Of a stretch of 64,000 bases of DNA, positions 565-34,560 are shown piece by piece. Made by a program: the position numbers and the translations under genes. Source of the stretch: an uncultured Verrucomicrobiae bacterium. GTDB taxonomy: Bacteria; Verrucomicrobiota; Verrucomicrobiia; Chthoniobacterales; Chthoniobacteraceae. The stretch spans positions 4,441-68,440 of the forward strand of contig CAWBXA010000002.1 of assembly GCA_963792695.1 (NCBI GenBank), given 5' to 3'. Every line of letters begins with the position of its first letter. Within the stretch, counting starts at the first letter, position 1. Under the pieces are notes generated by a model. That model searched no databases. It saw nothing but the letters and a program-made list of their open reading frames with translations, and was not told the DNA's origin.

Positions 565-2958
565 ATGTCGGAACTCTCTGACTACATCACCCAGGAATGC
601 GCGGCTTGCGGCGCCTTGATCGATATCTCCGACGAGGAGCCGCTCGCCCTCATGCATTGCCCGACATGCGGCACGTCGATGCGGGTGCGGCGGATGTTTG
701 GCAATTTCGAGCCGGTGGAAGTGCTGGGCGCGGGCGGGATGGGCGCGGTCTATCGGGCGCAGGATTTGGCGCTCAATCGGCCGGTCGCGCTGAAGCTGTT
801 GCGGCGCGAATACTCGGAGCACCCGGAGGTGACGCGGCAGTTCGAGCACGAGGCGGCGATCACCGCCCTGATCAATCATCCCAACGTGGTGAAGGTTTAC
901 TCGACCGGCTCGGATCACGGCACCTTTTATATTGCGATGGAGCTGGTGGACAAAGGATCGCTCGACGACCTCATGGCGTTGCAGAAGAAGATCACTGAGG
1001 CGCAAATGCTCGAAGTCGGCTTGCAGATCGCGCAGGGTTTGCGCGCGGCCTTTCAGAGCGGGCTGATCCATCGCGACATCAAGCCGGGCAACATCCTTTT
1101 CGCGCAGGCGCACCACGCGAAGATCGTCGATTTCGGCCTGGCGGCTTCACTGGAGAATGCTGGCGAAATCGGGGGAGAAGTCTGGGGCACCCCTTACTAT
1201 GTCGCGCCGGAGAAGCTCGAGACGCCCTCCCGGGAAGATGCGCGGAGCGACATCTATTCGCTGGGTGCGACTCTCTTTCACGCGCTGGCGGGGCGGCCGC
1301 CGCATGATGCGAAAGACGCCTCGATCCCGGCGCTGCGACAACTGAAAAGCCAGCCGGTGCGGATCGAAACGTTTGCGCCCGCGCTTTCGACGCGCGCGGC
1401 GGCGCTGATCAATCGGATGCTGCAACATCGCCCGGAAGCGCGCCCGCCGAATTATGATGAATTGATCAAGCAATTCGAGGCGGTGCGCTTGCCGCCGGTG
1501 GTCAAGCCGCGCGCGCCGACGCGCGTCCGCCCGCAACTTGTGCGGCAACAACAGCAGCAGACGACCATGCTCAGCCTCGTGACGGTCATCGCGCTGCTCG
1601 CGCTGGCGGCCGGGGCCATCCTTCTGTACACGCAGCGGGCGCGTCTCTTTCCGGCGCCGGAGCCGGAGCGAGTGGCGCTCGGGGCGCGGATGTTGCAGTC
1701 GCACGCGAAGGAGCAGCCGCTCTTTGAGGCGGCGCGCAAGCTGTTGCTCGAGGAGAAGCCTGCGGAAGCGGCGGCGGCCTTCCGGCAGCTCGAAGCCGAG
1801 CATCCGCAAATGGCGCAGCCGCTGCTCGACTGGACGACTTTCCACGCGGGCCTGGCGACGATTCTCGCCGGCCAACTGGACGAGGCGAAAGCCGACTTTG
1901 CCAAGCTGGCCAAACGCGAGGCGATCTCACAGGACCCGGACGAATTGAAGCTTTCGCAGTTCTTCCAAAAGATGGCGAAGCTGGTTCTGGAGGAAGGGCC
2001 GCAAGCGCCGGAGGATTTCAAGGGCTACCAAAAGGATGGATACGAAGCGCTGCTCCCTTTTCTGCTGGCAGCCAAGGATTGGGAACTCGGCGAGTTCGAC
2101 CATGCGCTGAATTTCTTTGGCGACTTCGAGTTGACCAATCCGGAGCCGCCTTACGCCTGGATCGCCGACTACCGAACCATCGCCAAGAAGTATGACCGGC
2201 AGTACGACCAGTACGCCACCTTCGCCAACCAGGCGAAGGTGTTGACGGACCCGGAGAAGGCGAAGGCGCAGTTGCCGCATCTGCGCGAAGTGCTGGCGGG
2301 CTTGAACCTGCAAGGCGCGCTGGCGCGCAAAGGGCGGAGCGTCGTGCGGCGGGTCGAGCAGGAGGTGGCCGACTTTGTCTCCGAAGCGGACAAAGCAGAG
2401 ATGGAGATGGTGGAATCCGACAACAAGGCGCTGGCCGAGGCGGAGGAGAAGTTGAAGCCGCTGGTGGCGCAATTCAAGTTTGCCGAGGCGCGCGACGCCA
2501 TGACGGCGGCGACGGCAGTCACGGACAAGGGGAAGAAAACCAAAGCGGGGCTGATCAATAAGTACGATTGGCTGGCGGGATTCAAATCGACCCTCACGCA
2601 GGATCTTGGTACCGGGGCGTATCCGGGGGGCCTGGCGCGCAAGGCTGGCGTGCGGCTCGCTGGCAGCGTGAGCGACGCCACGGACGAGCAGGTGATTGTG
2701 AAGGTCGGAGGGGCAAATGTGGGCGTGCCGTGGACCGACATTGCTTACGAGAGCCTGGTCGCGATGGCGCAATCGTACTGCCGCACGGACCTGCCACCGG
2801 ACCGGCTGGGCGACCGCCTTTGGCTGATCGGCGTCTTCGCTGCGGTGGAGGGAAATCCGGCGGATGCGACGAAGTTCTTCGGCCTGGCGATCAAGCAAAA
2901 GCCTTCCTATCAGAGCGAGCTGGTGGTTTTCCCGACCGTACCCGCGCCCGCAGCCTGA
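565..2958 (+). CDS. Membrane-anchored Ser/Thr protein kinase with N-terminal zinc ribbon and large C-terminal helical (TPR-like) region
   Basis: ORF 544..2958 with ATG at 565 (MSELSDY). CxxC...CxxC (CAACG...CPTCG). Hanks motifs HRDIKPGNILF, DFGLA, GTPYYVAPE. One TM (LSLVTVIALLALAAGAILLY). Confidence 0.9.
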   Translation: MSELSDYITQECAACGALIDISDEEPLALMHCPTCGTSMRVRRMFGNFEPVEVLGAGGMGAVYRAQDLALNRPVALKLLRREYSEHPEVTRQFEHEAAITALINHPNVVKVYSTGSDHGTFYIAMELVDKGSLDDLMALQKKITEAQMLEVGLQIAQGLRAAFQSGLIHRDIKPGNILFAQAHHAKIVDFGLAASLENAGEIGGEVWGTPYYVAPEKLETPSREDARSDIYSLGATLFHALAGRPPHDAKDASIPALRQLKSQPVRIETFAPALSTRAAALINRMLQHRPEARPPNYDELIKQFEAVRLPPVVKPRAPTRVRPQLVRQQQQQTTMLSLVTVIALLALAAGAILLYTQRARLFPAPEPERVALGARMLQSHAKEQPLFEAARKLLLEEKPAEAAAAFRQLEAEHPQMAQPLLDWTTFHAGLATILAGQLDEAKADFAKLAKREAISQDPDELKLSQFFQKMAKLVLEEGPQAPEDFKGYQKDGYEALLPFLLAAKDWELGEFDHALNFFGDFELTNPEPPYAWIADYRTIAKKYDRQYDQYATFANQAKVLTDPEKAKAQLPHLREVLAGLNLQGALARKGRSVVRRVEQEVADFVSEADKAEMEMVESDNKALAEAEEKLKPLVAQFKFAEARDAMTAATAVTDKGKKTKAGLINKYDWLAGFKSTLTQDLGTGAYPGGLARKAGVRLAGSVSDATDEQVIVKVGGANVGVPWTDIAYESLVAMAQSYCRTDLPPDRLGDRLWLIGVFAAVEGNPADATKFFGLAIKQKPSYQSELVVFPTVPAPAA

Positions 2959-3027
2959 CGACGCGCGCTGTTAATTTGCTCTTGAGCGGGGCGCCGGCGC
3001 CGCCTAGCGTGGCGGGTTCAGCAGTAC

Positions 3028-3101
3028 GCGCTCGTAGCTCAACTGGATAGAGCGTTGGCCTCCGAAGCCAAAGGTTGTGGGTTCGACCCCCGCCGGGCGC
3101 A
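3028..3101 (+). tRNA. tRNA-Arg (anticodon CCG)
   Basis: Hand-folded cloverleaf: acceptor GCGCTCG/CGGGCGC, D arm GCTC-AACTGGATA-GAGC, anticodon arm TTGGC-CTCCGAA-GCCAA, T arm GTGGG-TTCGACC-CCCGC, discriminator A. No encoded CCA. Confidence 0.9.
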
Positions 3102-3153
3102 CCCCTCGTTTTTGTTTGGACATCCCGAAGGCGGCGTCTAGAACGAGCGCCCT

Positions 3154-3408
3154 ATGCTCCACATTATTTGGTCCATCATCGTCGGTTTCATCATTGGTCT
3201 CATCGCTCGCGCGATCATGCCCGGTGGCCAGGAACTCGGCTTCATCGCCACCACCCTGCTCGGCATCGGTGGTTCCATTGTCGGCGGCCTCATCGCCCGC
3301 CTGTTCTCGAAACCCGCCCCCGGATCGAATTTTCACCCCGCCGGATTCATCATGTCCATCGTCGGCGCGCTGATCCTGCTGTTCGCGTACATTAAGCTGG
3401 TGCATTAA
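3154..3408 (+). CDS. GlsB/YeaQ/YmgE family (transglycosylase-associated) small membrane stress protein
   Basis: 84 aa. Gly-rich TM pattern [24 protein letters not shown]...[17 protein letters not shown] is characteristic of this family. Confidence 0.85.
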
Positions 3409-3589
3409 GGTTCAAACGTCGAGACGCGGCTCACCAAGGTGGGTCAGCCGCGTCGCGACAGCAGAAGGCCGCCGTGGGATTCCCCCCCAACCAGAATGTT
3501 GGGCGGATGGTTGGGCGTCTGGTGGCCGCAGGGCGGCGGCGACTTTGCGCGCTTGCGTGGGGGCGCCGGTTCGCGTGAGGTGGCGAGGC

Positions 3590-5963
3590 ATGCGCCTCCG
3601 CTCCCTTCTCCCACTCGCCGCTCTTTTCTTCGTCGCAGGTTCGCTCCTCGCTCAAGGCGCCAAGCCACCTGCCGAGTTGCGGTGGGATGCGATGGACCTC
3701 GGGCCGTTCCAAAGCGGGACGTTCAAAGTTGGCGATCAGATCACCGCCAAGGGGATCGCGCTCAAGGTCGGCACGGCTGCGGAGCAAGGGACGGTGCTGT
3801 TCGACACGGAGTTACTCCGCTGGAGTGCCGCGTGGACGGGCGGTTTCATCAAGTTTCCCCCCGCGCGCGGCGGCTTGGAAGGGCAGATCACACCCGATGG
3901 GCAGGTGCAACTGAGGTCGGGTTATGCGCCTGGCTGGGCCTTGGCCGGCGAGATTGGCGACGACCCGCGCGACCGGCATCAGGGCCATTTGCCCGCCGAG
4001 GTAGCCAAGTATCGCGGGCTGCAACTCCAGGGTACGCGCGTGATCGTCTCCTACAACGTGGGGAAGGCCATGGTGCGGGAGACGGCAAACCTGGCTGCGC
4101 TGGCGGGCGCGCCCGTTTTTGAGCGCCGCGTGCAACTCGAGCCTTCGGGTGAAGCGCTCTCGATGCTCATCTGCGACCTCCCCGGCGCGCAAGGCGAGGG
4201 CCAAGGCGCTGGCTTGACGCTCTCCGAGCAGGGCCAAGTGGACCCCGCCTCGACCGCCGCCATCGTCGTCGCCGCCGTCGGTTTGCCCGAAGGGGCGAAA
4301 CTGCGGGTGGCGGCCAATGGGCGCGCGGTGCTGGATTTGCCCGTGCGCCCGCAGCGCACCAGCTTTCTGTTGCGCATCTGGAGCGGCATGAAATCGGCGG
4401 AGCCGTCCGTGGCGGCCCTTGCGGCAGGTGTGCAGGCCAGCCCGGTGGTGGAGGAGAAGGCCCCAAAGAGTGCGTTGTGGGGACCGCCGCTGGAATCCAA
4501 AGGGGTCGTGGCGGCAGGAGCAAGCGCTTACCTGGCTGATGAGATCCCGTTCCCCGAGGAGAATCCCTTCCACTCCTGGTTCCGCCCCGGTGGTCACGAC
4601 TTCCTGCCGGACGGCCGCGCCGTGGTGGCCTCGCTGAGCGGCGATGTGTGGATGGTGAGCGGGCTCGACGCCGGTCTGGAGCATGTCCGATGGAAGCGCT
4701 TTGCCACGGGACTCTTTCAGCCTCTCGGGGTGCGGGTCGTGGGGAACGACATCTACGTGCTCGGCCGCGACCAGATCACGCGTTTGCACGAGGAGAGCGC
4801 GACGGGTGAAGCGGCGGAGTACGCGTGCTTCAACAACGATTGCGTGGTGACGGAGAACTACCATGAGTTCGCGCTCGATTTGCAGACTGATCGCGCCGGG
4901 AATTTCTATTACGCCAAAGGCTCCCCCTGGCAGCCGACCGTGCAGAGCCCGCATCAAGGCACGCTGCTGAAATTCACTCCCGATGGCGCGAAGCTGGAGA
5001 TCGTCGCGACCGGCTTGCGCGCTCCAAACGGGATGAGCATTGGGCCGAATGATGAGATCACCATCTCGGATAACCAGGGGCACTGGATGCCCTCGAACCG
5101 GCTGAACATCATCAAGACCGGCGGCTTTTACGGAATGGTGCCGGCGGCGCATCGCCCGATGACCTTCGAGGGAAAAGAGGGCGACTACACGGCGGACCCG
5201 AGCAGCCCCAGGGACCAGGCGCTGCACAAACAGAACTTCTGGGGCAGCATCCAGACGCCGGTGCCGCGCGGAAGCTTACGACCTGCCGCTCTGCTGGATT
5301 CCGATGCCGATCGACAACTCGAGCGGCGGCGAAGTCTGGGTGCCGGAGGGGAGCAAGTGGGGGCCGCTGGGCGGGCACCTCCTGCAAATGAGCTACGGCA
5401 AATGCGCCCTCTTCGACGTGCTCACCGAAACGGTGAACGGCGTGGCGCAAGCGGGGCTGGTGCGCTTTCCCATCAAGTTTTCCTCCGGCATCATGCGGGG
5501 GCGATTTTCCCCGGCGGATGGGCAGCTTTACCTGACGGGTCTGCGCGGCTGGCAGACTGATGCGGCGAAGGAGGGCTGCTTTTACCGCGTCCGCTACACT
5601 GGCCGGCCCTACGACCGGCCGACGGCGATGCGAACCTTGCACACCGGTTTGGAACTCCGCTTCGATGTCCCCATGGACTCAGCGATGGCGAGCGACCCGC
5701 AAAACTTCAACGTGGAGGAGTGGAACTACCTCTGGAGCGGGGCCTATGGCTCTGACGATTATTCCGTGAAGGAGCCGCGGAAGAAAGGACGCGATGTGCT
5801 GGCGGTGCAAAGCGCGCAGCTTTCGCCGGACGGCAAGACCCTCACCCTGGCCATCGCGGACTGGCGCTCCGCCATGCAGGTCCACGTGAAATTCAAAGGC
5901 AAGACCGCGGAAGGCCGCGAGGTGGATGAGGAACTCTACAGCACCGTGCATCAACTCCCCTGA
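3590..5963 (+). CDS. Secreted beta-propeller protein of the PVC 'membrane-bound dehydrogenase domain' / glucose-sorbosone-dehydrogenase-like type, with an apparent frameshift near 5270
   Basis: Signal peptide MRLRSLLPLAALFFVAGSLLAQG at 3590. ORF 3545..5560 loses sense after ...NFWGSIQTPVP. The sequence continues in the frame of ORF 5304..5963 as AYDLPLCWIPMPIDNSSGGEVW...GQLYLTGLRGWQTDA. Function assignment is from memory of the family. Confidence 0.6.
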
Positions 5964-25547: not shown

Positions 25548-27761
25548 TTGCATCGGGCGCGCGTGCCTTCGCCTTCCCGCTCTCTCTCTGACCGCCGTCG
25601 GCGTCGGGCGCTGGCGCGCATTGCGGTCGGCTGCACGCTGGGCGTGTTGGCCCTGATCTATGCGCCGATCATCCCGCGGGCGTTCATTCTTCTGCTGCGC
25701 GGCGGGCACGACGCTTTGGCGAGCTGGGTGTATCAGCATTCGGAGAGCTTTAGCGCTTACAACAATCTGGAGTTGAAGGCGGGCGACGCGCTGCTGGTCT
25801 ACGGCCGCAAGGCGCCCCTCGATCCGCGGATCATCTTCCTCGCCATCGACTCCCAATCAACAGAACTCGAGTTGATGAGCGACGAAAGGGAGCGGCTCTT
25901 GCGCGACTCGCCTGCCTTGAACCTGATGGCGCAAGGCTTCCCGTTCAATCGGCGCGTCTATGCCATGGTGGTCGAGCGGCTCGCGCAAGCGGGGGCCAAA
26001 GTGGTCGCCTTCGACATGCTCTTCCCCAAGGACAAGGACAACGACGCGGAGGTGCGCTCGGTCTGGCAATGGTACCGCGCGCAACTCGTGGTCGGCAGCA
26101 ATCTGCAAACGCTGGTGGACGAGAATGGCTCCCCGCATCCGGTGCTGGAGCAGCCGACCACGACGCTTATTCCTTTCGAAATGGAGGCCGAGTGCGTAGG
26201 CTTTGTAAACTTCAAACCGGACGTCGATGGCTCCGTGCGGCGGGGCTGGTTTCGTTCGAGCGAGTTGGAATTGAAAGGACAAGATCCGGAGCCCGGGCGG
26301 CCGGAAGTGCTCTCGCTGGCCGCTCGGGCGGCGACCAAGGCAGGCTTTGATGCGGCCATCCCGGCGACCCACGAGACGACCATGTTTCGCTTCGTGGAGG
26401 ATGTGCGTCCACGCTCGCTGTACGAGATTTTCGTGCCCGCGCTTTGGGATGGGAAAAACTACCGGGGCGGCGCGCTCTTCAAGGACAAGATCGTCTTCAT
26501 CGGTCCATTCGGAAATTTCCTGAAGGGGGAACAGGACACACTCCCGACGCCGCTCGGGCAGACGCTTGGACCCCAAATTCACCTGAGCGCCTTAAACGCC
26601 ATCCTGACGAACGACTTTCTCTCGACGCCTCCCATTTGGGCGGAGCTGCTCATCGTCGCGGCGGCTGGCGTGCTGGCCTGGCTGGCAGGACTGGCGGTGC
26701 ATGGACCATTGGCACGCACGGCTCTCCTGCTCGTGATCACCGGAGCCTACATCGGCCTGGCGTTCGTCATCTACAATTCCGCCGGGCTTTGCCTCTCCTT
26801 GCTCAATCCAACGCTCGCGCTGCTTTCGAGCGGCTTTGTCGGGCTGGTCTGGGAAAGAGTCCACGAGCAGATGGAGAAGACCCGCGTGCGGCAGACGCTC
26901 GAGCGTTATGTCTCCAGGGATGTCGTGACCGAAGTGCTCGATAATCCGCAGAGTTTTCTGCACACCGCCGGTGGCGAGCGCCGGCCTTTAACGATTCTTT
27001 TCTCCGATGTGCGCGGCTTCACGACGATCACGGAGAGCGCCGATCCGGCCCAATTGGTGGCGCAGTTGAACGAGTATTTCACCGACATGGTGCGCATCGT
27101 CTTTGCGCATCGGGGGACGCTGGACAAATTCATCGGCGACGCCGTCATGGCGCATTGGGGAGCCATCATGAGCCGCGGGGAAGGGCCGGATGCCTGCCGC
27201 GCGGTGGCGGCGGCGCTCGACATGCTCAAGGCGCTCGAGCGGCTGAATGTGGCTTGGAAAGCGCGTGGCATGCTGGAGCTGCGCATCGGCGTCGGCGTCA
27301 ACCACGGCCACGCCATCTGCGCCAATATCGGGTCGGAGGAGAAGTTCGAGTTCACCGCGATTGGCGACCCGGTGAATCTCGCCTCGCGGCTCGAGGGCGC
27401 GACGAAGCAGTTTCAACAGGACCTGCTCATCGGCGAAGAAGTGGCGCCGCTGGTGCGGCAGGATTTCGTTGTGCGCTCCGTCGATCTCATGCAGGTGAGC
27501 GGGAAAACGAAGCCGGTGGAGGTCTTCACCGTGCTGTCGAATCGGCAGAGCGCCGAGCCGGCGTGGCTGGCGCGCTACGAGGAAGGCATCCGCCTCTTTC
27601 GCGGCCGCGGCTTTGTCGAGGCGGAAGCGGCGTTCTCCGAAGTGCTCGCCACCGCGCCGGGCGACTGGCTGGCCGAAGAGTATTTGCGCCGCTGCCGCGC
27701 CTATCGAGAAACGCCTCCACCTGAGGATTGGAATGGCGTCTCGGTCTTGCGCAGCAAGTAG
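25548..27761 (+). CDS. CHASE2 sensor domain-containing class III adenylate/guanylate cyclase
   Basis: 737 aa, intact. Periplasmic CHASE2-like region, three or four TM segments, then the cyclase core FSDVRGFTTITE...FIGDAVMAHWGA...TAIGDPVNLASRLEG. The start codon is uncertain (TTG 25548 or GTG 25563). Confidence 0.88.
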   Translation: MHRARVPSPSRSLSDRRRRRALARIAVGCTLGVLALIYAPIIPRAFILLLRGGHDALASWVYQHSESFSAYNNLELKAGDALLVYGRKAPLDPRIIFLAIDSQSTELELMSDERERLLRDSPALNLMAQGFPFNRRVYAMVVERLAQAGAKVVAFDMLFPKDKDNDAEVRSVWQWYRAQLVVGSNLQTLVDENGSPHPVLEQPTTTLIPFEMEAECVGFVNFKPDVDGSVRRGWFRSSELELKGQDPEPGRPEVLSLAARAATKAGFDAAIPATHETTMFRFVEDVRPRSLYEIFVPALWDGKNYRGGALFKDKIVFIGPFGNFLKGEQDTLPTPLGQTLGPQIHLSALNAILTNDFLSTPPIWAELLIVAAAGVLAWLAGLAVHGPLARTALLLVITGAYIGLAFVIYNSAGLCLSLLNPTLALLSSGFVGLVWERVHEQMEKTRVRQTLERYVSRDVVTEVLDNPQSFLHTAGGERRPLTILFSDVRGFTTITESADPAQLVAQLNEYFTDMVRIVFAHRGTLDKFIGDAVMAHWGAIMSRGEGPDACRAVAAALDMLKALERLNVAWKARGMLELRIGVGVNHGHAICANIGSEEKFEFTAIGDPVNLASRLEGATKQFQQDLLIGEEVAPLVRQDFVVRSVDLMQVSGKTKPVEVFTVLSNRQSAEPAWLARYEEGIRLFRGRGFVEAEAAFSEVLATAPGDWLAEEYLRRCRAYRETPPPEDWNGVSVLRSK

Positions 27762-27810: not shown

Positions 27811-28218
27811 TCACGCTACCCTATCCGGCCAGAGATCAAGTTGGAATCCGCCTAAGAGCGCATCGATTTGATTCTTCAGCGCCGGTCCGGGGCGACCGAT
27901 CACAACGTCAATCGGGCTGAGGTCGCCATTTTCGTCTCGCAGCACGTTTTGATCGTGAGCATCGCCAAACACGACGCCAATTCTGCGGTTGAAATAAATG
28001 GGCGCTTCCTCAGAAATGGCCGCTTTGTTGAATCGGAGGTTCGCGAAGAATGAGTCGATCTCCGCCCTTGTTGGGTGTGGGGATTGTACCAAATCCACGT
28101 TGATCCAAGGCTGCGTGGTGATGACTTCCATTTGCTCTTCATCGTACGCGATACCTTCGATCCAGATTTCATCTCCAAACAGCACGTTGTGCCATCCCAG
28201 CCTGCGCAAATATTCCAA
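27811..28218 (-). pseudogene. 5'-truncated ORF with a kinase-like catalytic segment (fragment)
   Basis: 135 aa. FGDAHDQNVLRDENGDLSPIDVVI resembles the HxDxxxxN...D catalytic/Mg loop of APH or polyvalent-protein kinases. The frame is open upstream to a TAA inside GTTAAGGC at 28266-28273, with no ATG. Confidence 0.35.
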
Positions 28219-28336: not shown

Positions 28337-28588
28337 CTGGGCGAAATCTCTCGACTTAAGAGAGCGGCAACAGCTTTGAAGGCCAAACTCGGCGCTCCAG
28401 CGGCCATCACCGCCACGGCCCACAAATTGGCCCGCATCCGCTATCATCTGATCAAACACCGCTGCCCTTACAACGCCTCCGCCTTTGCCCGCGAAGAAAA
28501 AGTTCACCGCCAGCGCCGCGAGTGCAACCTGCGCAAGCAAGCGGCTCATTTCGGCTTCCAACTCACCCCGATGCAGAGTAAAACCTAG
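28337..28588 (+). pseudogene. C-terminal fragment of an IS110-family transposase, a different species from the two copies below
   Basis: ...LKAKLGAPAAITATAHKLARIRYHLIKH... is the typical C-terminal helix of Transposase_20/IS110 enzymes. No N-terminal part is present. Confidence 0.55.
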
Positions 28589-28605
28589 TCAGTTTCTGAG
28601 GAGGC
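28576..28605. repeat. 30-nt direct repeat, copy 1 (GAGTAAAACCTAGTCAGTTTCTGAGGAGGC)
   Basis: Identical to 33187-33216. Here it supplies the last six codons plus stop (ASSETD*) of the 92-aa ORF on the minus strand. Confidence 0.9.
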
Positions 28606-28863
28606 TTGGCGCACGGGCTTCTTGGCAAACCATTGGATCAGCCCGCAGTTCTCACAGATCAGTGCTACTCCTGACTTGTCTAGCCAATCCAGTTTAAGAA
28701 AAGTGGCGCCAGTCGTGTTGAGAAGCGCTTCACTTTCGTGGAACGTCTCAGCTTGGCAGTGCGTGCAGCGAACTTGTGCACCACCCGCGTTATAACGGGA
28801 AGGTCCGAACGCATTGGCGAATCCTTTGGCTGCGGCTTTAAGGGAAGAGAGTAAATCGCTCAT
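28585..28863 (-). CDS. Hypothetical small zinc-ribbon protein
   Basis: 92 aa. CTHCQ...CENCG cysteine pairs. ATG lies 13 nt from the left end of IS110 copy A. Confidence 0.45.
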   Translation of the reverse strand: MSDLLSSLKAAAKGFANAFGPSRYNAGGAQVRCTHCQAETFHESEALLNTTGATFLKLDWLDKSGVALICENCGLIQWFAKKPVRQASSETD

Positions 28864-28876
28864 GATGGTAGTGGCC

Positions 28877-29036
28877 TAGACATGATGGCTGTGTGCCCAC
28901 TGTAAAGCCACCTCCATCGGCCGGGAAAAAGGGAGTGCGTTTGCCTGCGGTGAGGAAGGCGCGGGTTGCGCGGGCCGAGGCCCGCGCCGAGCCGCCTGTG
29001 AGAAAGCCGCCGGCGAGCCGGCGGCGATTCTCCAGT
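28877..29036 (+). ncRNA. Candidate IS110 bridge-RNA/left-end non-coding region, copy A
   Basis: 160 nt between the element end and the likely GTG start. 100% identical in both copies, whereas the coding part has scattered substitutions. Two 8-bp hairpins with CGAG loops at 28968-28987 and 29006-29025. Confidence 0.35.
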
Positions 29037-30459
29037 GTGAAAACACCCACAGACAAACGCATAGGTAAACCGATCCTCTTCGTAGGGTTGGATGTCCACC
29101 GAGGCGGCGGAGTGAGGAATAAGGGATGCGGGGCGTACGGGGCGAGCCCAAAGAAACGATTTCCGTCGCCCTGGCGGAAAACGAGGGCGCCCGCGAGGTG
29201 CGCTCCCACGGCACGATGTCCCACGATCTGCACGCGCTGGAAAAGCTCCTGCGCAAGCTCCAGGGTGAGGGGCCGGAGCGGCGCGAACTGCGCGTCTGCT
29301 ATGAGGCTGGGCCATGCGGGTTTGGCGTCGCGCGGCGGCTCTTGCAGTTGAAGATCGACTGCCAGGTCATCGCCCCCTCCCTTATCCCGCAGAAGAGCGG
29401 CGACCGGCAGAAGAATGACCGAGGTGGCGGAAGGGACAAGGGAGGAAGAGGGGCGGGCGAGCCAAACGCGATGCGCTCAAGCTGGCGCGCTTGCACCGCG
29501 CGGGCGAGCTGACCGCCGTCCACATTCCCGAGCCGACCGACGAAGCGTTGCGCGACCTCTGCCGGGCGCGCACCGACGCCATCAACGATCAGCGCAGGAC
29601 CCGCCAGCAACTTAAAGCGCAGCTCCTGCGCTTGGGTTATAAGTATACGGGCCGCACGAGTTGGAACGAGGCGCACGAGCGTTACCTGCGCGAACTGGTG
29701 CTACCACACACCGCCCACAAGATCGTGGTCGAGGAATACCTCCAATCCATCGGCACCGCCGGCGAGCGGGTGGCCAGGCTGACCGCGCAAATCGAGGCGC
29801 TGGCTCAAGAGTGGCGGCTCTGGCCGGCAGTCCAGGTCATCATGAGCTTGCGCGGCTTTCAGGTCCTCTCGGCGACGTTGTTCTTAAGCGAACTCGGCGG
29901 ACTCGAGCGCTTTGCCCATCCGACCCATCTCATGGCCTACCTGGGACTGCTGCCGAGCGAGCACTCCAGCGGCGACACGGTGCGCAAGGGCGCCATTACC
30001 AAGTGCGGCAACTCGCATGTGCGCTGGATCTTGATCGAAGCCGCGCAACACTACCTGCACCCGCCCAAGGTCAGCCAGGAACTCAGCCGCCGCCAGCAGG
30101 GCCAGCCGCGCCGGATCAAGGAAATCTCGTGGAGCGCGCAGAACCGGCTCCATCGCCGCTACCGAGCGCTGCTCGGCCGCGGCAAGAGTCCGCAGAAAGC
30201 GATTGTCGCCGTCGCGCGCGAGCTGGCCGGCTTCCTGTGGGCGCTCTACCAGGAGTGGCACGCGCCGGGCAGCCTCCCGTTGCGCTCCGCTCAGCCGCCA
30301 AAGTCCGCCGACTCCGCCGGCGTTCCGCCCAAAGCGGCGGCACGCATTTATCGCCTGCCGATCATCGAAGAAACCGCCCTGCGCGGCCACCGTCCCCGGT
30401 CGTGCGGCGCGCGTGCCCGGGAGGGGGTGGGTTCGGGGGGAACAAAGTCCCGCCGCTGA
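28877..30459 (+). mobile_element. IS110-family insertion sequence, copy A; transposase disrupted by two short insertions and right end not defined (possibly about 30740)
   Basis: Identical over 222 nt to copy B from TAGACATGATGG. Transposase pieces LFVGLDVH / ETISVALAENEGAREV... / ...KRDALKLARLHRAGELTAVHIPEPTDEALRDLCRAR...ITKCGNSHVRWILIEAA (ORF 29491..30459). Confidence 0.8.
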
Positions 30460-30967
30460 CTCCGCCTGTCTGCCCCGGCCTCGCCCGGAACCCCATCCCA
30501 TCAACTTAACGAAAGGAGCTCTGCCCACCACCACTGCACCTGATCTCCTCTCCTCATCTACCCACGTCCGACGCGGGCTGAGGGCAGCAGAGAGTCCGGG
30601 CCACGCGCGGGACGAAAGCCAAGCGAAACCGAAGCTAACCTTTAGCATCAAAAGCCCTGTTGATCCGTCCAACTCACGAGGGTCGTTTAGGGATCACCCG
30701 CGCCGCCCTCCGGGGTGGCCGGCGAACTCCCGAGCCTAGACCGTGAAAGGGACACAAAAGACGAATTGAATCCAAGAAATGACGGTACCCAACCCGCGAA
30801 TATCAGCTTGCCCGCCTCGTCATCCAACCCAGGACTTCTTCGCCAACCTTCCTCTGCCCGGACTCTCTCCCGCCCTGAGTCGCTAAATCCGTAATCTAAC
30901 AAACTATGAAAACCACAACGAAAAAAGTGGGCAAATGCGCTTTGCCTTTAGTTGACAAACACAGCCA

Positions 30968-31088
30968 TATCAACGCTCCCAAGCTCAGCGACGGCGGAGG
31001 CTGACGCGCTGGCTGCACGGTGGGAGGCAAGGTGGCGGAGGAAGCAGCCAGCGTGACAGTCAGCCGTCGGTGCAGCGCCTGGTTAGGC
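30968..31088 (-). other. Integron attC-like recombination site 1
   Basis: On the plus strand: TATCAAC-GCTCCC-AAGCTCAGCGAC...CGCTGGCTGC(27-nt loop)GCAGCCAGCG...GCTGCAGCGCCTG-GTTAGGC. It lies 17 nt after the stop of ORF 31105..31422. Confidence 0.5.
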
Positions 31089-31104
31089 GACGGTCGATTG
31101 GAAA

Positions 31105-31422
31105 TCATTTGGTTCGGCCTCCATGCAAGTCATCTACGAGCGATATGCCGTCTGGTAGTCCGCCCCAACTCCTACCTGTCCAATGCCACATCTCTTCGAT
31201 GCGGAGTTCTTGGGCTGGCTCGAACTGAGGCTGCGGAGCTAGACCACGCGAAACATAAAGCACATTGGTGGTGCGGACGCGGCCCGTGATGATGCCTTCG
31301 TCGATGCGCGCTGCCGAGACAATGAGAATGTCGCGGCGAACATCGCGAGCGATGAACTGCGAAATGGTCTTGCCCTCCCGGAATCTCCTGCGGCGTGACC
31401 ATCGCTGTAGTCTCTTAAACAT
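31105..31422 (-). CDS. Cassette-like hypothetical protein
   Basis: 105-aa ORF that ends 17 nt before attC-like site 1. No family recognised. Confidence 0.4.
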   Translation of the reverse strand: MFKRLQRWSRRRRFREGKTISQFIARDVRRDILIVSAARIDEGIITGRVRTTNVLYVSRGLAPQPQFEPAQELRIEEMWHWTGRSWGGLPDGISLVDDLHGGRTK

Positions 31423-31453
31423 GTCTTCGGATGCTGTTCACGCCAGTCGCCTA

Positions 31454-31765
31454 TTAGGCAGCGGGAGTGGAAGGTGGATGGTCGAAGGGAACAAGGTGTA
31501 GACGCTCCAACAAGCGGCGGAAAATACGGATACGACGGCGGTGCTCACGGTAGGCGGCTAACTCGCGCTTCAGGTCGGGCGGCGCGTCGGGATCGTCAGC
31601 AACCTGCATATGGCGCTCGGGGTAGAGCCACCAGTAGGGCGTGGACACTACCAGCAACCCCAGCAAAAACAGCAGAAACAACGGCACCATGATGGGGGCG
31701 AACATCCACTCCCAATCGGCGATGGGACGTTTGTCTCCGCGGAATCTGGCAAGTGGAAGACGCAT
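31454..31765 (-). CDS. Cassette-like hypothetical membrane protein
   Basis: 103-aa ORF that starts 5 nt after attC-like site 2. TM segment MFAPIMVPLFLLFLLGLLVVSTPYWWL. Confidence 0.45.
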   Translation of the reverse strand: MRLPLARFRGDKRPIADWEWMFAPIMVPLFLLFLLGLLVVSTPYWWLYPERHMQVADDPDAPPDLKRELAAYREHRRRIRIFRRLLERLHLVPFDHPPSTPAA

Positions 31766-31769
31766 AGCT

Positions 31770-31872
31770 GCCTAACGGATGTAAGCTCAGCGACAGCTAC
31801 TGGCGAGGACAGATGTGGCTTTCGGAATGGAGCAAGACGCCAGTAGCTGTTCGCTGCAGCGCCGGGTTAGGC
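31770..31872 (-). other. Integron attC-like recombination site 2
   Basis: GCCTAAC-GGATGT-AAGCTCAGCGACAGCTACTGGCG(33-nt loop)CGCCAGTAGCTGTTCGCTGCAGCGCCGG-GTTAGGC. The core sites match RYYYAAC / GTTRRRY. It lies 8 nt after the stop of ORF 31880..32227. Confidence 0.55.
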
Positions 31873-31879
31873 GTGCCGG

Positions 31880-32227
31880 TCATATCCAGGTCGACGTGCC
31901 CGGATCGAAGTGGGGATGACGCTCGATGAGGGCATGGACGAACTCGAGGAGACTGCGAGAACAAACCGGACAACGCAAGTCCCACGGCGCACGCTCCTGC
32001 ATGAGCGCGCCATCGCCAGGGCAGAACCATCGCCCCCCGATGCCGCCGCTGCCGCGATACTGGGCAAGGTCCGGCTCGCGTGGGCGACGCACCTCCGACA
32101 CGTAGCAATCGATCAACCGCTGAGCCAACTCGACGGCGAGAGCCATCCGACCGTGCACACACTCCAACGTGCCGTCGGTACGACGAGAAAGCTCGTCGCC
32201 ACACTTAGGACAGAAAAGCGTCTTCAT
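31880..32227 (-). CDS. Cassette-like hypothetical zinc-ribbon protein
   Basis: ATG at 32227 (MKTLFCPKCGDEL...RCPVCSRSL...). This is the C-terminal part of composite ORF 31880..32944. It overlaps the upstream ORF by 23 nt. Confidence 0.45.
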   Translation of the reverse strand: MKTLFCPKCGDELSRRTDGTLECVHGRMALAVELAQRLIDCYVSEVRRPREPDLAQYRGSGGIGGRWFCPGDGALMQERAPWDLRCPVCSRSLLEFVHALIERHPHFDPGTSTWI

Positions 32228-32555
32228 GGTGAGCGCGAGGCACGCAAAATGGAAGGACTTCGAGCTGCGAGAGACGCGGAATCTCTGCGACGGTGGGCGC
32301 GGCAAAGAACAAGCCGACCGTGCGGGCTGGACACAAAACCGCCGCCAAGGTGAGGAGCACGGTGGTGCCATCAGGACGGTGCAAACGCATCGGGGTGCCA
32401 GCAGGAAGGTCGGTAGGACAAGCCTGCTCGGGATCGGGAACGGCGACGATGCCCTCGCGGCCTCCGTAAAGCTGAGTGTGGTCGGGGTGATCGGCCAGCA
32501 GACGCGCGGTGATGGTGAAGCTGTCGATGACCTGGAGCACGGCTGAAGAAAGCAC
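32205..32555 (-). CDS. Cassette-like hypothetical protein
   Basis: 116-aa ORF with a GTG start, 27 nt from the left end of IS110 copy B. No family recognised. Confidence 0.4.
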   Translation of the reverse strand: MLSSAVLQVIDSFTITARLLADHPDHTQLYGGREGIVAVPDPEQACPTDLPAGTPMRLHRPDGTTVLLTLAAVLCPARTVGLFFAAPTVAEIPRLSQLEVLPFCVPRAHHEDAFLS

Positions 32556-32582
32556 AGATTACAGGTGAGACGAGGCACCGCG

Positions 32583-32742
32583 TAGACATGATGGCTGTGT
32601 GCCCACTGTAAAGCCACCTCCATCGGCCGGGAAAAAGGGAGTGCGTTTGCCTGCGGTGAGGAAGGCGCGGGTTGCGCGGGCCGAGGCCCGCGCCGAGCCG
32701 CCTGTGAGAAAGCCGCCGGCGAGCCGGCGGCGATTCTCCAGT
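32583..32742 (+). ncRNA. Candidate IS110 bridge-RNA/left-end non-coding region, copy B
   Basis: Identical to 28877-29036. Confidence 0.35.
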
Positions 32743-33189
32743 GTGAAAACACCCACAGACAAACGCATAGGTAAACCGATCCTCTTCGTAGGGTTGGATG
32801 TCCATAAAGAAACGATTTCCGTCGCCCTGGCGGAGAATGAGGGCGCCCGCGAGGTGCGCTCCCACGGCACGATTTCCCACGATCTGCACGCGCTGGAAAA
32901 GCTCCTGCACAAGCTCCAGGGTGAGGGGCCGGAGCGGCGCGCACTGCGCGTCTGCTACAGCCGAACGGAGAGAGACAGACCGAGGGCGGAGCCTCGGCCC
33001 AACGGGGCGGCAGCGGCGGCTGCCGTCAACGCCGGCCCGTGCGGGTTTGGCGTCGCGCGGCGGCTCTTGCAGTTGAAGATCGACTGCCAGGTCATCGCCC
33101 CTTCCCTCATCCCGCAGAAGAGCGGCGACCGGCAGAAGAACGACAAACGCGATGCGCTCAAGCTGGCGCGCTTGCACCGCGCGGGCGAG
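32583..33189 (+). mobile_element. IS110-family insertion sequence, copy B (5' 600 nt only, truncated after ...LARLHRAGE)
   Basis: Left end and first ~150 codons only (ORF 32599..33192). It carries a 72-nt in-frame insertion at 32959-33030 and is cut off by the 30-nt repeat. Confidence 0.8.
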
Positions 33190-33216
33190 TAAAACCTAGT
33201 CAGTTTCTGAGGAGGC
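33187..33216. repeat. 30-nt direct repeat, copy 2
   Basis: Identical to 28576-28605. Here it forms the 3' end (…LLALLASSETD* after repairing one indel) and downstream flank of the IS1-like transposase fragment. Confidence 0.9.
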
Positions 33217-33415
33217 GAGCAGCGCAAGAAGGTCTTTCAGCGTTACAGACATGGTTCGCGATGCCAGCTTCCTTCGCGGGCGGCACGCGCAGCGAGTAAT
33301 GCACGCGGCCGAGGTTGAAGTGCATGAAGGGGAGCGAGACAGCGTGCGCGTGGTTCTCGACCTCCGTTGAGAAGGCGTTCGTGAGCCGCGTAAACCGGCG
33401 CATACTCATGCGCAT
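33196..33415 (-). pseudogene. C-terminal fragment of an IS1-like (ISMhu11-type) transposase
   Basis: ORF 33200..33415 reads MRMSMRRFTRLTNAFSTEVENHAHAVSLPFMHFNLGRVHYSLRVPPAKEAGIANHV..., the conserved C-terminal block of this family. The N-terminal ~250 codons are missing. Confidence 0.65.
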
Positions 33416-33578: not shown

Positions 33579-34560
33579 ATGAAAAGTCCCATCAAAATCG
33601 CCGTGACCGGAGCCGCCGGTCAGATCGGTTACTCGCTGCTCTTTCGCATCGCCTCCGGCGCGATGTTTGGCGCCGACCAGCCCGTGGAGTTGCACTTGAT
33701 CGAGGTGCCGCAAGCGCTCGGCGCGCTCGGTGGAGTGGTCATGGAGTTGGAGGATTGCGCGTTTCCCTTGCTCCGTAAAGTGGTGCCGACGGCGGACCTC
33801 GATGAGGGATTCCGCGGCGTGAATTGGGCGCTGCTGGTCGGCTCGGTGCCGCGCAAGCAGGGCATGGAGCGGGCCGATCTGCTCGGAATCAACGGGAAGA
33901 TTTTCGTGGGGCAGGGGAAGGCGATCGAAAAGCACGCCGCGGGCGACGCGCGCGTGCTGGTCGTCGGCAATCCGTGCAACACCAATTGCCTGATTGCCAT
34001 GAACAGCGCCCGCGGAGTGCCCTCGGATCGCTGGTTCGCCATGACGCGCCTGGATGAAAATCGCGCCAAGTCTCAGTTGGCGCAGCGGGCGAGCGTCGAG
34101 GTGGAGCGGGTGACGAACCTGGCCATTTGGGGCAACCATTCGCCCACCATGTACCCGGATTTCTACAATGCGCGGATTGGCGACCGCCCGGCGACCGAGG
34201 TGATCCACGATCTCGGCTGGCTCGAACACGAATTTCTCCAGACGGTGCAGCAGCGCGGCTCAGCCATCATCAAGGCGCGCGGGCGCTTCCTCCGCGGCCT
34301 CGGCGGCGAATGCGGTCGTCGATACCGTCCGCTCGCTCGTTACGCCCACGAAGGGAGGGGAATGGTATAGCGTTGCGGTCTGCTCACGCGGCGAATACGA
34401 GACCGAAGCGGGGCTGATTTTCTCCTATCCGGTCCGCAGCACGCCTACCGGGTACGAGGTGGCGAAGTGGGTCCCAATCAATGAATTTTCGCGCGCGAAG
34501 ATCAACGCCACGCTGGCTGAATTGCGCGAGGAGCGGGACTTGGTCAAAGAGCTTTTGTAG
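33579..34560 (+). CDS. mdh: Malate dehydrogenase (NAD, LDH-like type 2 family), with an apparent 1-nt insertion at the GGG run 34281-34283
   Basis: ORF 33579..34370 reads [22 protein letters not shown]...VVGNPCNTN...WGNHS. After ...AIIKARG the next frame gives [18 protein letters not shown]...[14 protein letters not shown]...LVKELL* (TAG 34558-34560). Confidence 0.9.

Follow-up and report, generated by a model that had tools for sequence, protein, structure and literature searches.

In a 64,000-nt stretch of DNA from an uncultured Verrucomicrobiae bacterium of the family Chthoniobacteraceae (assembly GCA_963792695.1, contig CAWBXA010000002.1, positions 4,441 to 68,440; the whole stretch is referred to below as the window), two hairpin-forming sites are, with high confidence, genuine attC recombination sites, and the locus that holds them is, with the same confidence, a cluster of attC sites lacking integrases (CALIN), left over from an integron cassette array that reads along the minus strand. 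The evidence for this reading lies in the match of both sites, on one strand only, to a covariance model built from other genomes, in the linkage of this attC type to integron integrases, in a fold geometry shared with the attC of aadB, and in the occurrence of homologues of two local open reading frames (ORFs), A and B, as cassettes in other arrays. The CALIN definition (Cury et al. 2016, PMC4889954) asks for two or more attC within 4 kb in a place that has no integron integrase close by. A CALIN-type array had been proposed in an earlier, sequence-only reading of the window, and the present analysis supports it: the distance between the two attC is 682 nt, and the 64 kb yielded no intI.

The bottom strand of an attC site folds into a hairpin in which an unpaired spacer lies between a 7-bp R box and an L box, and the extrahelical bases of the latter mark the strand. 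The integron integrase, bound to both boxes, chooses the strand by its bulged bases and exchanges strands between G and TT of the R' core; such recombination allows cassettes to be excised as circles and reinserted.

The attC sites and their relatives

The sites and the cassette features between and beside them are as follows, the minus strand of the window being the top strand of the array.

31770 to 31872, minus (top) strand: attC site 2, intact, 103 nt (covariance-model score, fold, homology to locus L206)
31872 to 31866 and 31776 to 31770, minus (top) strand: cores of site 2, R'' (GCCTAAC) and R' (GTTAGGC) respectively; the plus strand is the recombinogenic bottom strand
30973 to 31088, minus strand: main part of attC site 1, R'' through 'GT', the first two R' bases on the top strand (covariance-model score, identity to attCs of loci L095 and L088)
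28874 to 28878, minus strand: remaining half of the site 1 R' core, GCCTA on the plus strand and TAGGC on the top strand, left of insertion sequence copy A
32580 to 32584, minus strand: R' core remnant, TACGC on the top strand, of the attC that once preceded cassette A; the rest is lost
32250 to 32540, minus strand: cassette A gene, GTG start at 32540, homologues of 103 aa, last ~6 codons and attC deleted
31880 to 32227, minus strand: cassette B gene, 115 aa, two CxxC pairs, zinc-ribbon-like, nine homologues
32245 to 31770, minus strand: cassette B as a whole, including site 2 (homology to L206)
31454 to 31765, minus strand: ORF C, 103 aa, small, with a membrane segment suggested by eye
31105 to 31422, minus strand: ORF D, 105 aa, member of a large conserved family, sharing a cassette with ORF C
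28585 to 28863, minus strand: ORF E, 92 aa, zinc-ribbon-like, the next cassette past site 1

Both sites were found where the sequence-only reading had placed them, at 30968-31088 and 31770-31872, and of the modules that they share, AAGCTCAGCGAC (at 30981 and 31783) and GCAGCGCC-N-GGTTAGGC (at 31072 and 31856) each occur exactly twice in the 64 kb, at these sites only; at up to 3 mismatches, the latter pattern has 5 matches in the window against 1.26 expected. Two particulars of that description require correction. Site 1 has GGTGCAGCGCC where GCTGCAGCGCC had been given, and, although GCCTAAC/GTTAGGC in site 2 and the GTTAGGC end of site 1 are confirmed as cores, TATCAAC is not the other core of site 1, its TATCA being the end of an insertion sequence (IS).

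When the plus strands are folded as DNA, site 1 reaches -34.8 kcal/mol (z -3.6) and site 2 reaches -26.4 kcal/mol (z -4.4), the latter with its R box paired over all 7 bp (GCCTAAC with GTTAGGC). Site 1 acquires RYYYAAC/GTTRRRY pairing only once the IS is removed and 28874-28878 is joined to 30973 onward; in the fold of this restored site all 7 bp of the R box close (-36.5 kcal/mol, z -4.0). On the bottom (plus) strand, the 3' arm consists of stem, a bulged T, 6 bp, a bulged C, 3 bp, a 5-nt spacer and GTTAGGC, so that, counted from the spacer, one bulge follows after 3 bp and the other 6 bp further; the unpaired spacer measures 5 nt in this arm and 7-8 nt in the 5' arm (6-8 nt in the comparison with the aadB attC).

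This geometry is that of the class 1 aadB attC (pAR-0405, L200), which likewise combines RYYYAAC...GTTRRRY cores, a 7-bp R box, an unpaired spacer and an ORF upstream on the top strand with an L box that bulges after 3 bp and has a further bulge, a T, 6 bp on, both in the 3' arm of the bottom strand. It differs in being 60 nt long, against 103 and 121 nt in the window, and in its first extrahelical base, which is C rather than G in the window sites; moreover, the window L-box, AGCTCAGCG/CGCTGCAGC, differs from that of class 1 and is typical of soil Planctomycetota, Verrucomicrobiota and Acidobacteriota. The attCs of L206 (235-1283), L216, L217 and L218 carry GCGCTCCAGCG in place of the GCGCTGCAGCG of the window.

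Relatives of the sites are widespread. A scan of one genome per species for the pattern TGCAGCGCC-N-GGTTAGGC located the 3' module in at least 119 stretches, in which copy numbers are lower bounds, mostly from Planctomycetota, Verrucomicrobiota and Acidobacteriota, and also from Myxococcota and similar soil or freshwater metagenome-assembled genomes (MAGs). Among the matches listed, 74 of 129 display the full outline, [G/C]CTAAC-G-N4-6-(A)GCTCAGCG..stem..GCTGCAGCGCC-N-GGTTAGGC, with lengths of 58-139 nt, and the closest attC relatives belong to Verrucomicrobiota MAGs. Site 1 represents a 124-nt subtype common to Chthoniobacteraceae and Verrucomicrobiales MAGs (L006, L095, L088), with 87-90% identity to the 124-nt attCs of L095 and L088.

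In an alignment of 50 sites from other genomes, 91.5% of cells are paired in the R box and the L box/stem, while structures shifted by 1-3 columns pair 23-42%; compensatory changes occur in 8 pairs, with an observed score reached by none of 500 shuffles, and covariation spans 22 pairs common across phyla. The two window stems differ in sequence yet pair, as the sequence-only reading had suggested. A covariance model (R1) was built from these 50 sites, with the window sites excluded from training, as a surrogate for the IntegronFinder attC model. R1 assigns site 2 (31770-31872) 69.3 bits (E = 2e-14) on the plus strand, as opposed to 8.3 bits on the minus strand, and site 1 (30969-31088) 34.3 bits (E = 4e-6) on the plus strand. 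With filters off, no further attC site above 10.6 bits was found in the 64-kb window, leaving exactly two, on one strand. No attC family of Rfam matched the sites at gathering or lenient thresholds.

Equally important is the association of this attC type with integron integrases. A tblastn search with IntI1 (the query being 99.7% identical to an annotated intI1) found homologues of 45-57% identity in 13 of the at least 119 stretches, and the four homologues tested against TIGR02249, the NCBIfam model of the integron integrase, scored 412-479 bits (cutoff 265). In these integrase-bearing loci the R1 matches form arrays of 4-12 sites, all on one strand and separated by a few hundred bp, and across integron loci including L216-L218 the arrays number 4-19 sites. 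The strand reading GCCTAACC.GGCGCTGCA points away from intI in 13/13 integrase loci, an orientation which identifies the minus strand of the window as the top strand and places the ORFs in canonical cassette orientation. Within the 64-kb window no integron integrase was found by tblastn with five integron integrases (best E = 0.27), in line with the earlier remark that no tyrosine recombinase is present; a complete integron, with intI and an adjacent attI and cassette promoter (Pc), is accordingly not what the window holds.

Cassettes of the array

On the minus strand, the distance from stop codon to site is 7 nt for site 2 (stop at 31880) and 16 nt for site 1 (stop at 31105), and 4 nt separate site 2 from the start of the following ORF at 31765, so that the ORF-attC-ORF packing reported earlier is retained with these spacings. 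Cassette B recurs elsewhere: in L206 an 82%-identical homologue forms a single-gene cassette between two R1 matches, and the window and L206 share 78% nucleotide identity over 479 nt, from 32245 to 31770, that is, from the left boundary of the cassette through the end of site 2. The homology starts exactly at the cassette boundary, and the junction between stop codon and attC reads CCGGTAC in L206 and CCGGCAC in the window. An ORF upstream of the B homologue in L203 was considered as a possible relative of ORF A and proved unrelated to it.

Homologues of ORF A (103 aa, 69-89% identical) are single-gene cassettes in the arrays L216, L217 and L218, which contain 17, 19 and 10 strong R1 matches. 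Homology to A ends at ~32250, about six codons short, and that to cassette B begins at 32245, which indicates that the end of A and its entire attC are missing; the frame of ORF A now continues into cassette B, to 32205. Judged from these boundaries, 'A+B' reads as a fusion of two cassettes through attC loss and not as a two-gene cassette. The proposal that the four ORFs form two two-gene cassettes therefore fails for at least this pair.

ORF C has 59 cluster representatives at E <= 1e-3 and matches no Pfam or NCBIfam family. The family of ORF D comprises 340 homologues of ~105 aa, roughly 67-84% identical and with invariant Trp and Gly positions; no Pfam model covers it, its AlphaFold structure model has a pLDDT of 63, and a Foldseek search against the PDB returned nothing better than E = 0.8. 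The loci examined for this family (L207-L215) present varied non-cassette contexts, adjoining, for example, rpoZ and smpB in L209. ORF E begins 10 nt beyond the restored R' core of site 1 and gives weak zinc-ribbon matches in Pfam; a second IS110-family element has put its own end in place of the 3' end of the ORF, beyond which there is no attC. Apart from weak zinc-ribbon matches, the cassette ORFs as a whole match no Pfam or NCBIfam family.

Insertion sequences inside attC cores

Two copies of one insertion sequence adjoin the array.

28879 to 30972, plus strand: IS copy A, IS1111-type, 2094 bp, Pfam PF01548 and PF02371, antisense to the cassettes
28885 to 28894 and 30959 to 30968: subterminal inverted repeats of copy A, 10 bp, ATGGCTGTGT/ACACAGCCAT
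32585 to 33189, plus strand: IS copy B, 5' part only, truncated at 33189, with direct repeats D1-D3 and D7 shared with copy A

Copy A has the IS1111-type organisation within the IS110 family, for which subterminal inverted repeats of 7-17 bp are among the published criteria (PMC11208160): DEDD and Transposase_20 domains, a short left end of ~190 nt, a long right end of ~510 nt (30460-30972) and subterminal repeats. Its DEDD/Transposase_20 gene is broken by two small insertions. These insertions, at 29100-29148 and 29420-29463, are related to each other, purine-rich and 44-49 nt long, begin with CGAGGYGGCGGA and end with GGGCGAGCC, and are absent from copy B; no further copy was found in the window or in 218 fetched loci. 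Copy B bears a different insertion of ~70 nt (32958-33030) that is absent from copy A, and none of the three lengths is a multiple of 3.

The right tip of copy A reads ..ACACAGCCATATCA, followed by ACGCTCCCAAGCTCAGCGAC, and its left flank ends in ..GGCCTA. Excising 28879-30972 rejoins GCCTA and ACG into GCCTAAC, a normal bottom-strand R' box, from which it follows that the 'TATCA' of site 1 is the right tip of the IS and not part of the attC, and, the IS splitting the site 1 core, that the array continues to the left of the IS with ORF E. Copy B adjoins TACGCGG, whose counterpart in L216 and L217 is the TAGGCGG at the end of the attC that precedes the cassette A homologue; on this alignment copy B occupies the same position in another attC, of which 5 nt remain. 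The sequence-only reading had described two IS110-family copies flanking the array and had mentioned the IS1111-attC subgroup; an attC-targeting IS it is, yet not a member of that subgroup, and the copies lie inside attC sites instead of merely flanking the array.

The same association recurs in metagenomes. A scan with the repaired transposase gave 517 confirmed candidates, some of them in subgroups with other targets, and 80 loci at 48-78% identity, and in 13 of the 80 an R1 attC lies directly past the IS right end, on the transposase strand, with junctions of the form ..TTGACA-N-AGCCATATCA followed at once by ACG-N4-7-GCTCAGC... A right junction of ..CCATATCA, then ACG and an attC, is also present in L007, an Acidobacteriota MAG. 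Where the loci provide enough flank, the right flank starts with ACG in 36 of 62 and holds an L'-like module in 20 of 62; the left flanks at the IS boundary read G[C/T/G]C (GCC, GTC, GGC) before TAGACAT.ATGGCTGTC (n = 14 metagenome loci). On the top strand the insertion position is GT^TAGGC, which differs by 1-2 nt from the place of integrase crossover. Contigs with this attC type are labelled Verrucomicrobiota, Acidobacteriota and Planctomycetota.

The IS1111-attC group reportedly includes ISPst6, ISPa21 and ISKpn4 (Tetu & Holmes 2008; Post & Hall 2009). The window element resembles it in its DEDD transposase, in subterminal repeats ending ..CCATAT.., in its long right end and in site- and orientation-specific insertion into attC with the transposase antisense to the cassettes. 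It departs from the group in lineage, the transposase being 32% identical to that of ISKpn4 over the C-terminal 141 residues only, and in position: ISKpn4 in pAR-0405 sits at the L''/spacer boundary near R'', at the attC 5' end, in agreement with PMC3001079, whereas the window IS occupies the R' core at the 3' end. Members of the ISPst6/ISPa21/ISKpn4 clade are at least ~74% identical to one another and ISSfr2 is 23-24% identical to the clade (matrix in PMC11187229). Membership in the IS1111-attC group consequently fails on clade and insertion position, although orientation agrees. We know of no report of attC targeting by ISSfr2. That element is the nearest named IS (ISfinder sequence, PMC11187229 supplement), and the window transposase is ~50% identical to those of ISSfr2-type elements over its whole length. 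Group IIC-attC introns (PMC3001079) offer a further parallel as mobile elements homing to attC in antisense, but they are ribozymes and retroelements, not DEDD transposase elements.

By analogy with its family, the right end of copy A (30460-30972) is the likely seat of a seekRNA or bridge RNA. In L120, the closest relative, the right end shares conserved blocks with copy A in which GCCTAGAC, GTTGAT and ATATCAG occur; these agree with the left, right and predicted circle junctions and are no more than suggestive, as an 8-mer match is expected ~0.8 times by chance. Candidate guide blocks lie at about 30655-30664, 30731-30742 and 30806-30815; a guide search by 6-mer target matches in IS right ends gave no motif common to all subgroups. 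In L120, the region 2882-5011 contains a 295-aa tyrosine recombinase, ~30% identical to IntI and not counted as an integron integrase; it adjoins the nearest relative of the IS and its attC, and is followed by a 408-aa ORF that appears IS91-family-like by eye. A sister IS subgroup, represented by L169 and L188 with the right end ..CAATACATATCA, also occupies attC arrays, but is oppositely oriented and inserted elsewhere: the flank on its right, GCTTCATTCGTTAGGC, places it between L' and R', and in L169 12 attC matches surround the IS.

Taken together, we tentatively propose, at somewhat less than even confidence, that homing to attC has evolved a second time, independently, among RNA-guided DEDD-transposase elements, the IS representing a lineage that is related to ISSfr2, inserts into the R' core (GT^TAGGC) rather than on the L'' side, recurs in metagenomes and MAGs, and would act as a widespread 'cassette freezer' of environmental integrons. 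Within a limited literature search, no published description of this IS lineage was found.

The DNA surrounding the array, which is located between an adenylate cyclase gene (25548-27761) and mdh, bears further marks of mobile elements. A 3' remnant of the second IS110-family element lies at 28376 to 28605 on the plus strand (transposase C-terminus by eye; no Pfam match). Its right end corresponds to a 28-nt direct repeat, D11 (GTAAAACCTAGTCAGTTTCTGAGGAGGC), present at 28578-28605 and 33189-33216; the left copy follows ~230 nt of the transposase gene of this element and cuts off ORF E, the right copy (27-28 nt) is fused to the truncated copy B at a GAG microhomology, and together they bracket the entire array remnant. 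Upstream of the array stand, in order, truncated copy B, 27 nt of the second IS110-family element, a transposase fragment (by eye) and mdh. On the minus strand, 33200-33415 encodes a 71-aa ORF that by eye resembles the C-terminal fragment of an IS1595/ISXO2-type transposase. In mdh (33579-34560, plus strand) there is a +1 frameshift near GCGCGCGGG[C]GCTTCC at 34275-34290, beyond which the shifted frame gives a normal MDH C-terminus by eye with a stop at 34558-34560; either the assembly has an indel here or the gene turned into a pseudogene very recently, and single-base frameshifts elsewhere in the window may accordingly be errors. At the other edge, a 135-aa ORF (27811-28218, minus strand) matches the C-terminal two thirds of Kinase-PolyVal (PF18762, E = 1.7e-8) and probably represents part of some larger protein of a mobile element, at the island edge.

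Decay of the array and competing explanations

On this reading, the array runs from an attC of which TACGC is left, through cassette A fused to B, site 2, the C+D cassette and the split site 1, to ORF E. Judging from its sequence, site 2 could still recombine, while site 1, with its R box parted by 2.1 kb, presumably cannot. Both IS copies belong to an IS1111-type lineage homing to GCCTA^ACG, the R' core on the bottom strand, and their homing may be guided, as in related elements, by an RNA from the long IS right end. Because insertion takes place 1-2 nt from the crossover and splits the R box, any attC entered by this IS lineage should lose its function. The array was probably cut off from its integrase when IS inserted and their ends later suffered deletions, and only one intact attC with no integrase or attI nearby would leave the cassettes frozen in place, so that they are most likely fixed where they stand.

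The locus shares with known CALINs the presence of at least two attC within 4 kb, the lack of a nearby intI, cassettes without assigned function and adjoining IS; in the study that defined them, 38% of CALINs had neighbouring IS, and IS were proposed as creators of CALINs (PMC4889954). It differs from them in that the IS lie inside the R' cores of two attC and are not mere neighbours, and in that only one attC is intact and one deleted attC fuses two cassettes.

Several points weigh against the CALIN reading or its details. The training sites of R1 were picked for 17 bases that match the window sites, which makes the score partly circular; the circularity is partial only, since the 5' module, the stem and the integrase association are independent of that choice. 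The extrahelical base closest to the R box is C on the bottom strand of the window sites, where class 1 attC have G. Within one attC family, this L-box bulged base is G in the attCs of L206, L216, L217 and L218 and C in the window, a variation to be expected of a base without a pairing partner. Furthermore, homologues of ORF D are not cassettes in eight gene contexts (six distinct neighbourhoods), and an R1 scan of six of these contexts with DNA and one 558-bp contig gave a single match, of 19.7 bits, 3 kb from the gene (L213), on which account C+D may be an unusual or fused cassette. The junction of A and B, CCAT-TTT-GCGT, gives no hint how the attC was lost. Finally, an integrase elsewhere in the genome is possible, the search having covered the 64-kb window.

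Such an integrase might act in trans and keep the array active as a satellite with mobile cassettes. For half of the CALINs surveyed by Cury et al. 2016 (PMC4889954) the genome had an IntI gene at another locus, and site 2 is intact and scores as high as sites of complete integrons, but we consider this outcome unlikely: two working sites are required for excision, whereas 2.1 kb of IS interrupts the R box of site 1, cassette A has lost its attC, no more than 5 nt survive of the upstream attC, and the region is rich in truncated IS. Far less probable still is that the sites are dispersed palindromes akin to repetitive extragenic palindromic (REP) sequences, or target hairpins of an IS, without relation to integrons. 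They are indeed GC-rich imperfect palindromes beside IS110-family elements, some members of which target REP sequences (PMC11187229); against this, there are two copies in 64 kb, both after ORF stops, where the sequence-only reading had taken a dispersed element unrelated to ORF boundaries as its counter-case, the same sequence type forms one-strand arrays beside integron integrases in many genomes, and cassettes bounded by these sites recur in different arrays.

Their placement, 7-16 nt past stop codons, would also suit intrinsic transcription terminators of small genes, an explanation that we find scarcely credible, given that neither hairpin is followed by a T run, that stems of 100-120 nt keep both their unpaired bases and their GCCTAAC/GTTAGGC ends conserved, and that covariation extends over 22 pairs across phyla. 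The reading retained is, in consequence, that of genuine attC sites in a CALIN.

CALINs are common, and Verrucomicrobia and their relatives are already known to carry integrons. As an integron remnant the locus is ordinary, and what is possibly new is the IS lineage and its target position. For annotation, the split sites imply that attC finders will report such sites as weak or odd-ended, as with 'TATCAAC', and the junction data supply natural target/guide pairs for the study of bridge RNA and seekRNA programming. The locus serves, in addition, as a worked example of array decay, in which an IS enters the recombination core, attC loss fuses cassettes and deletions at IS ends sever the array from its integrase. 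Should the tentative placement of the IS lineage hold, attC would have been adopted more than once as a homing target by RNA-guided IS110/IS1111 elements, at different positions within the site.

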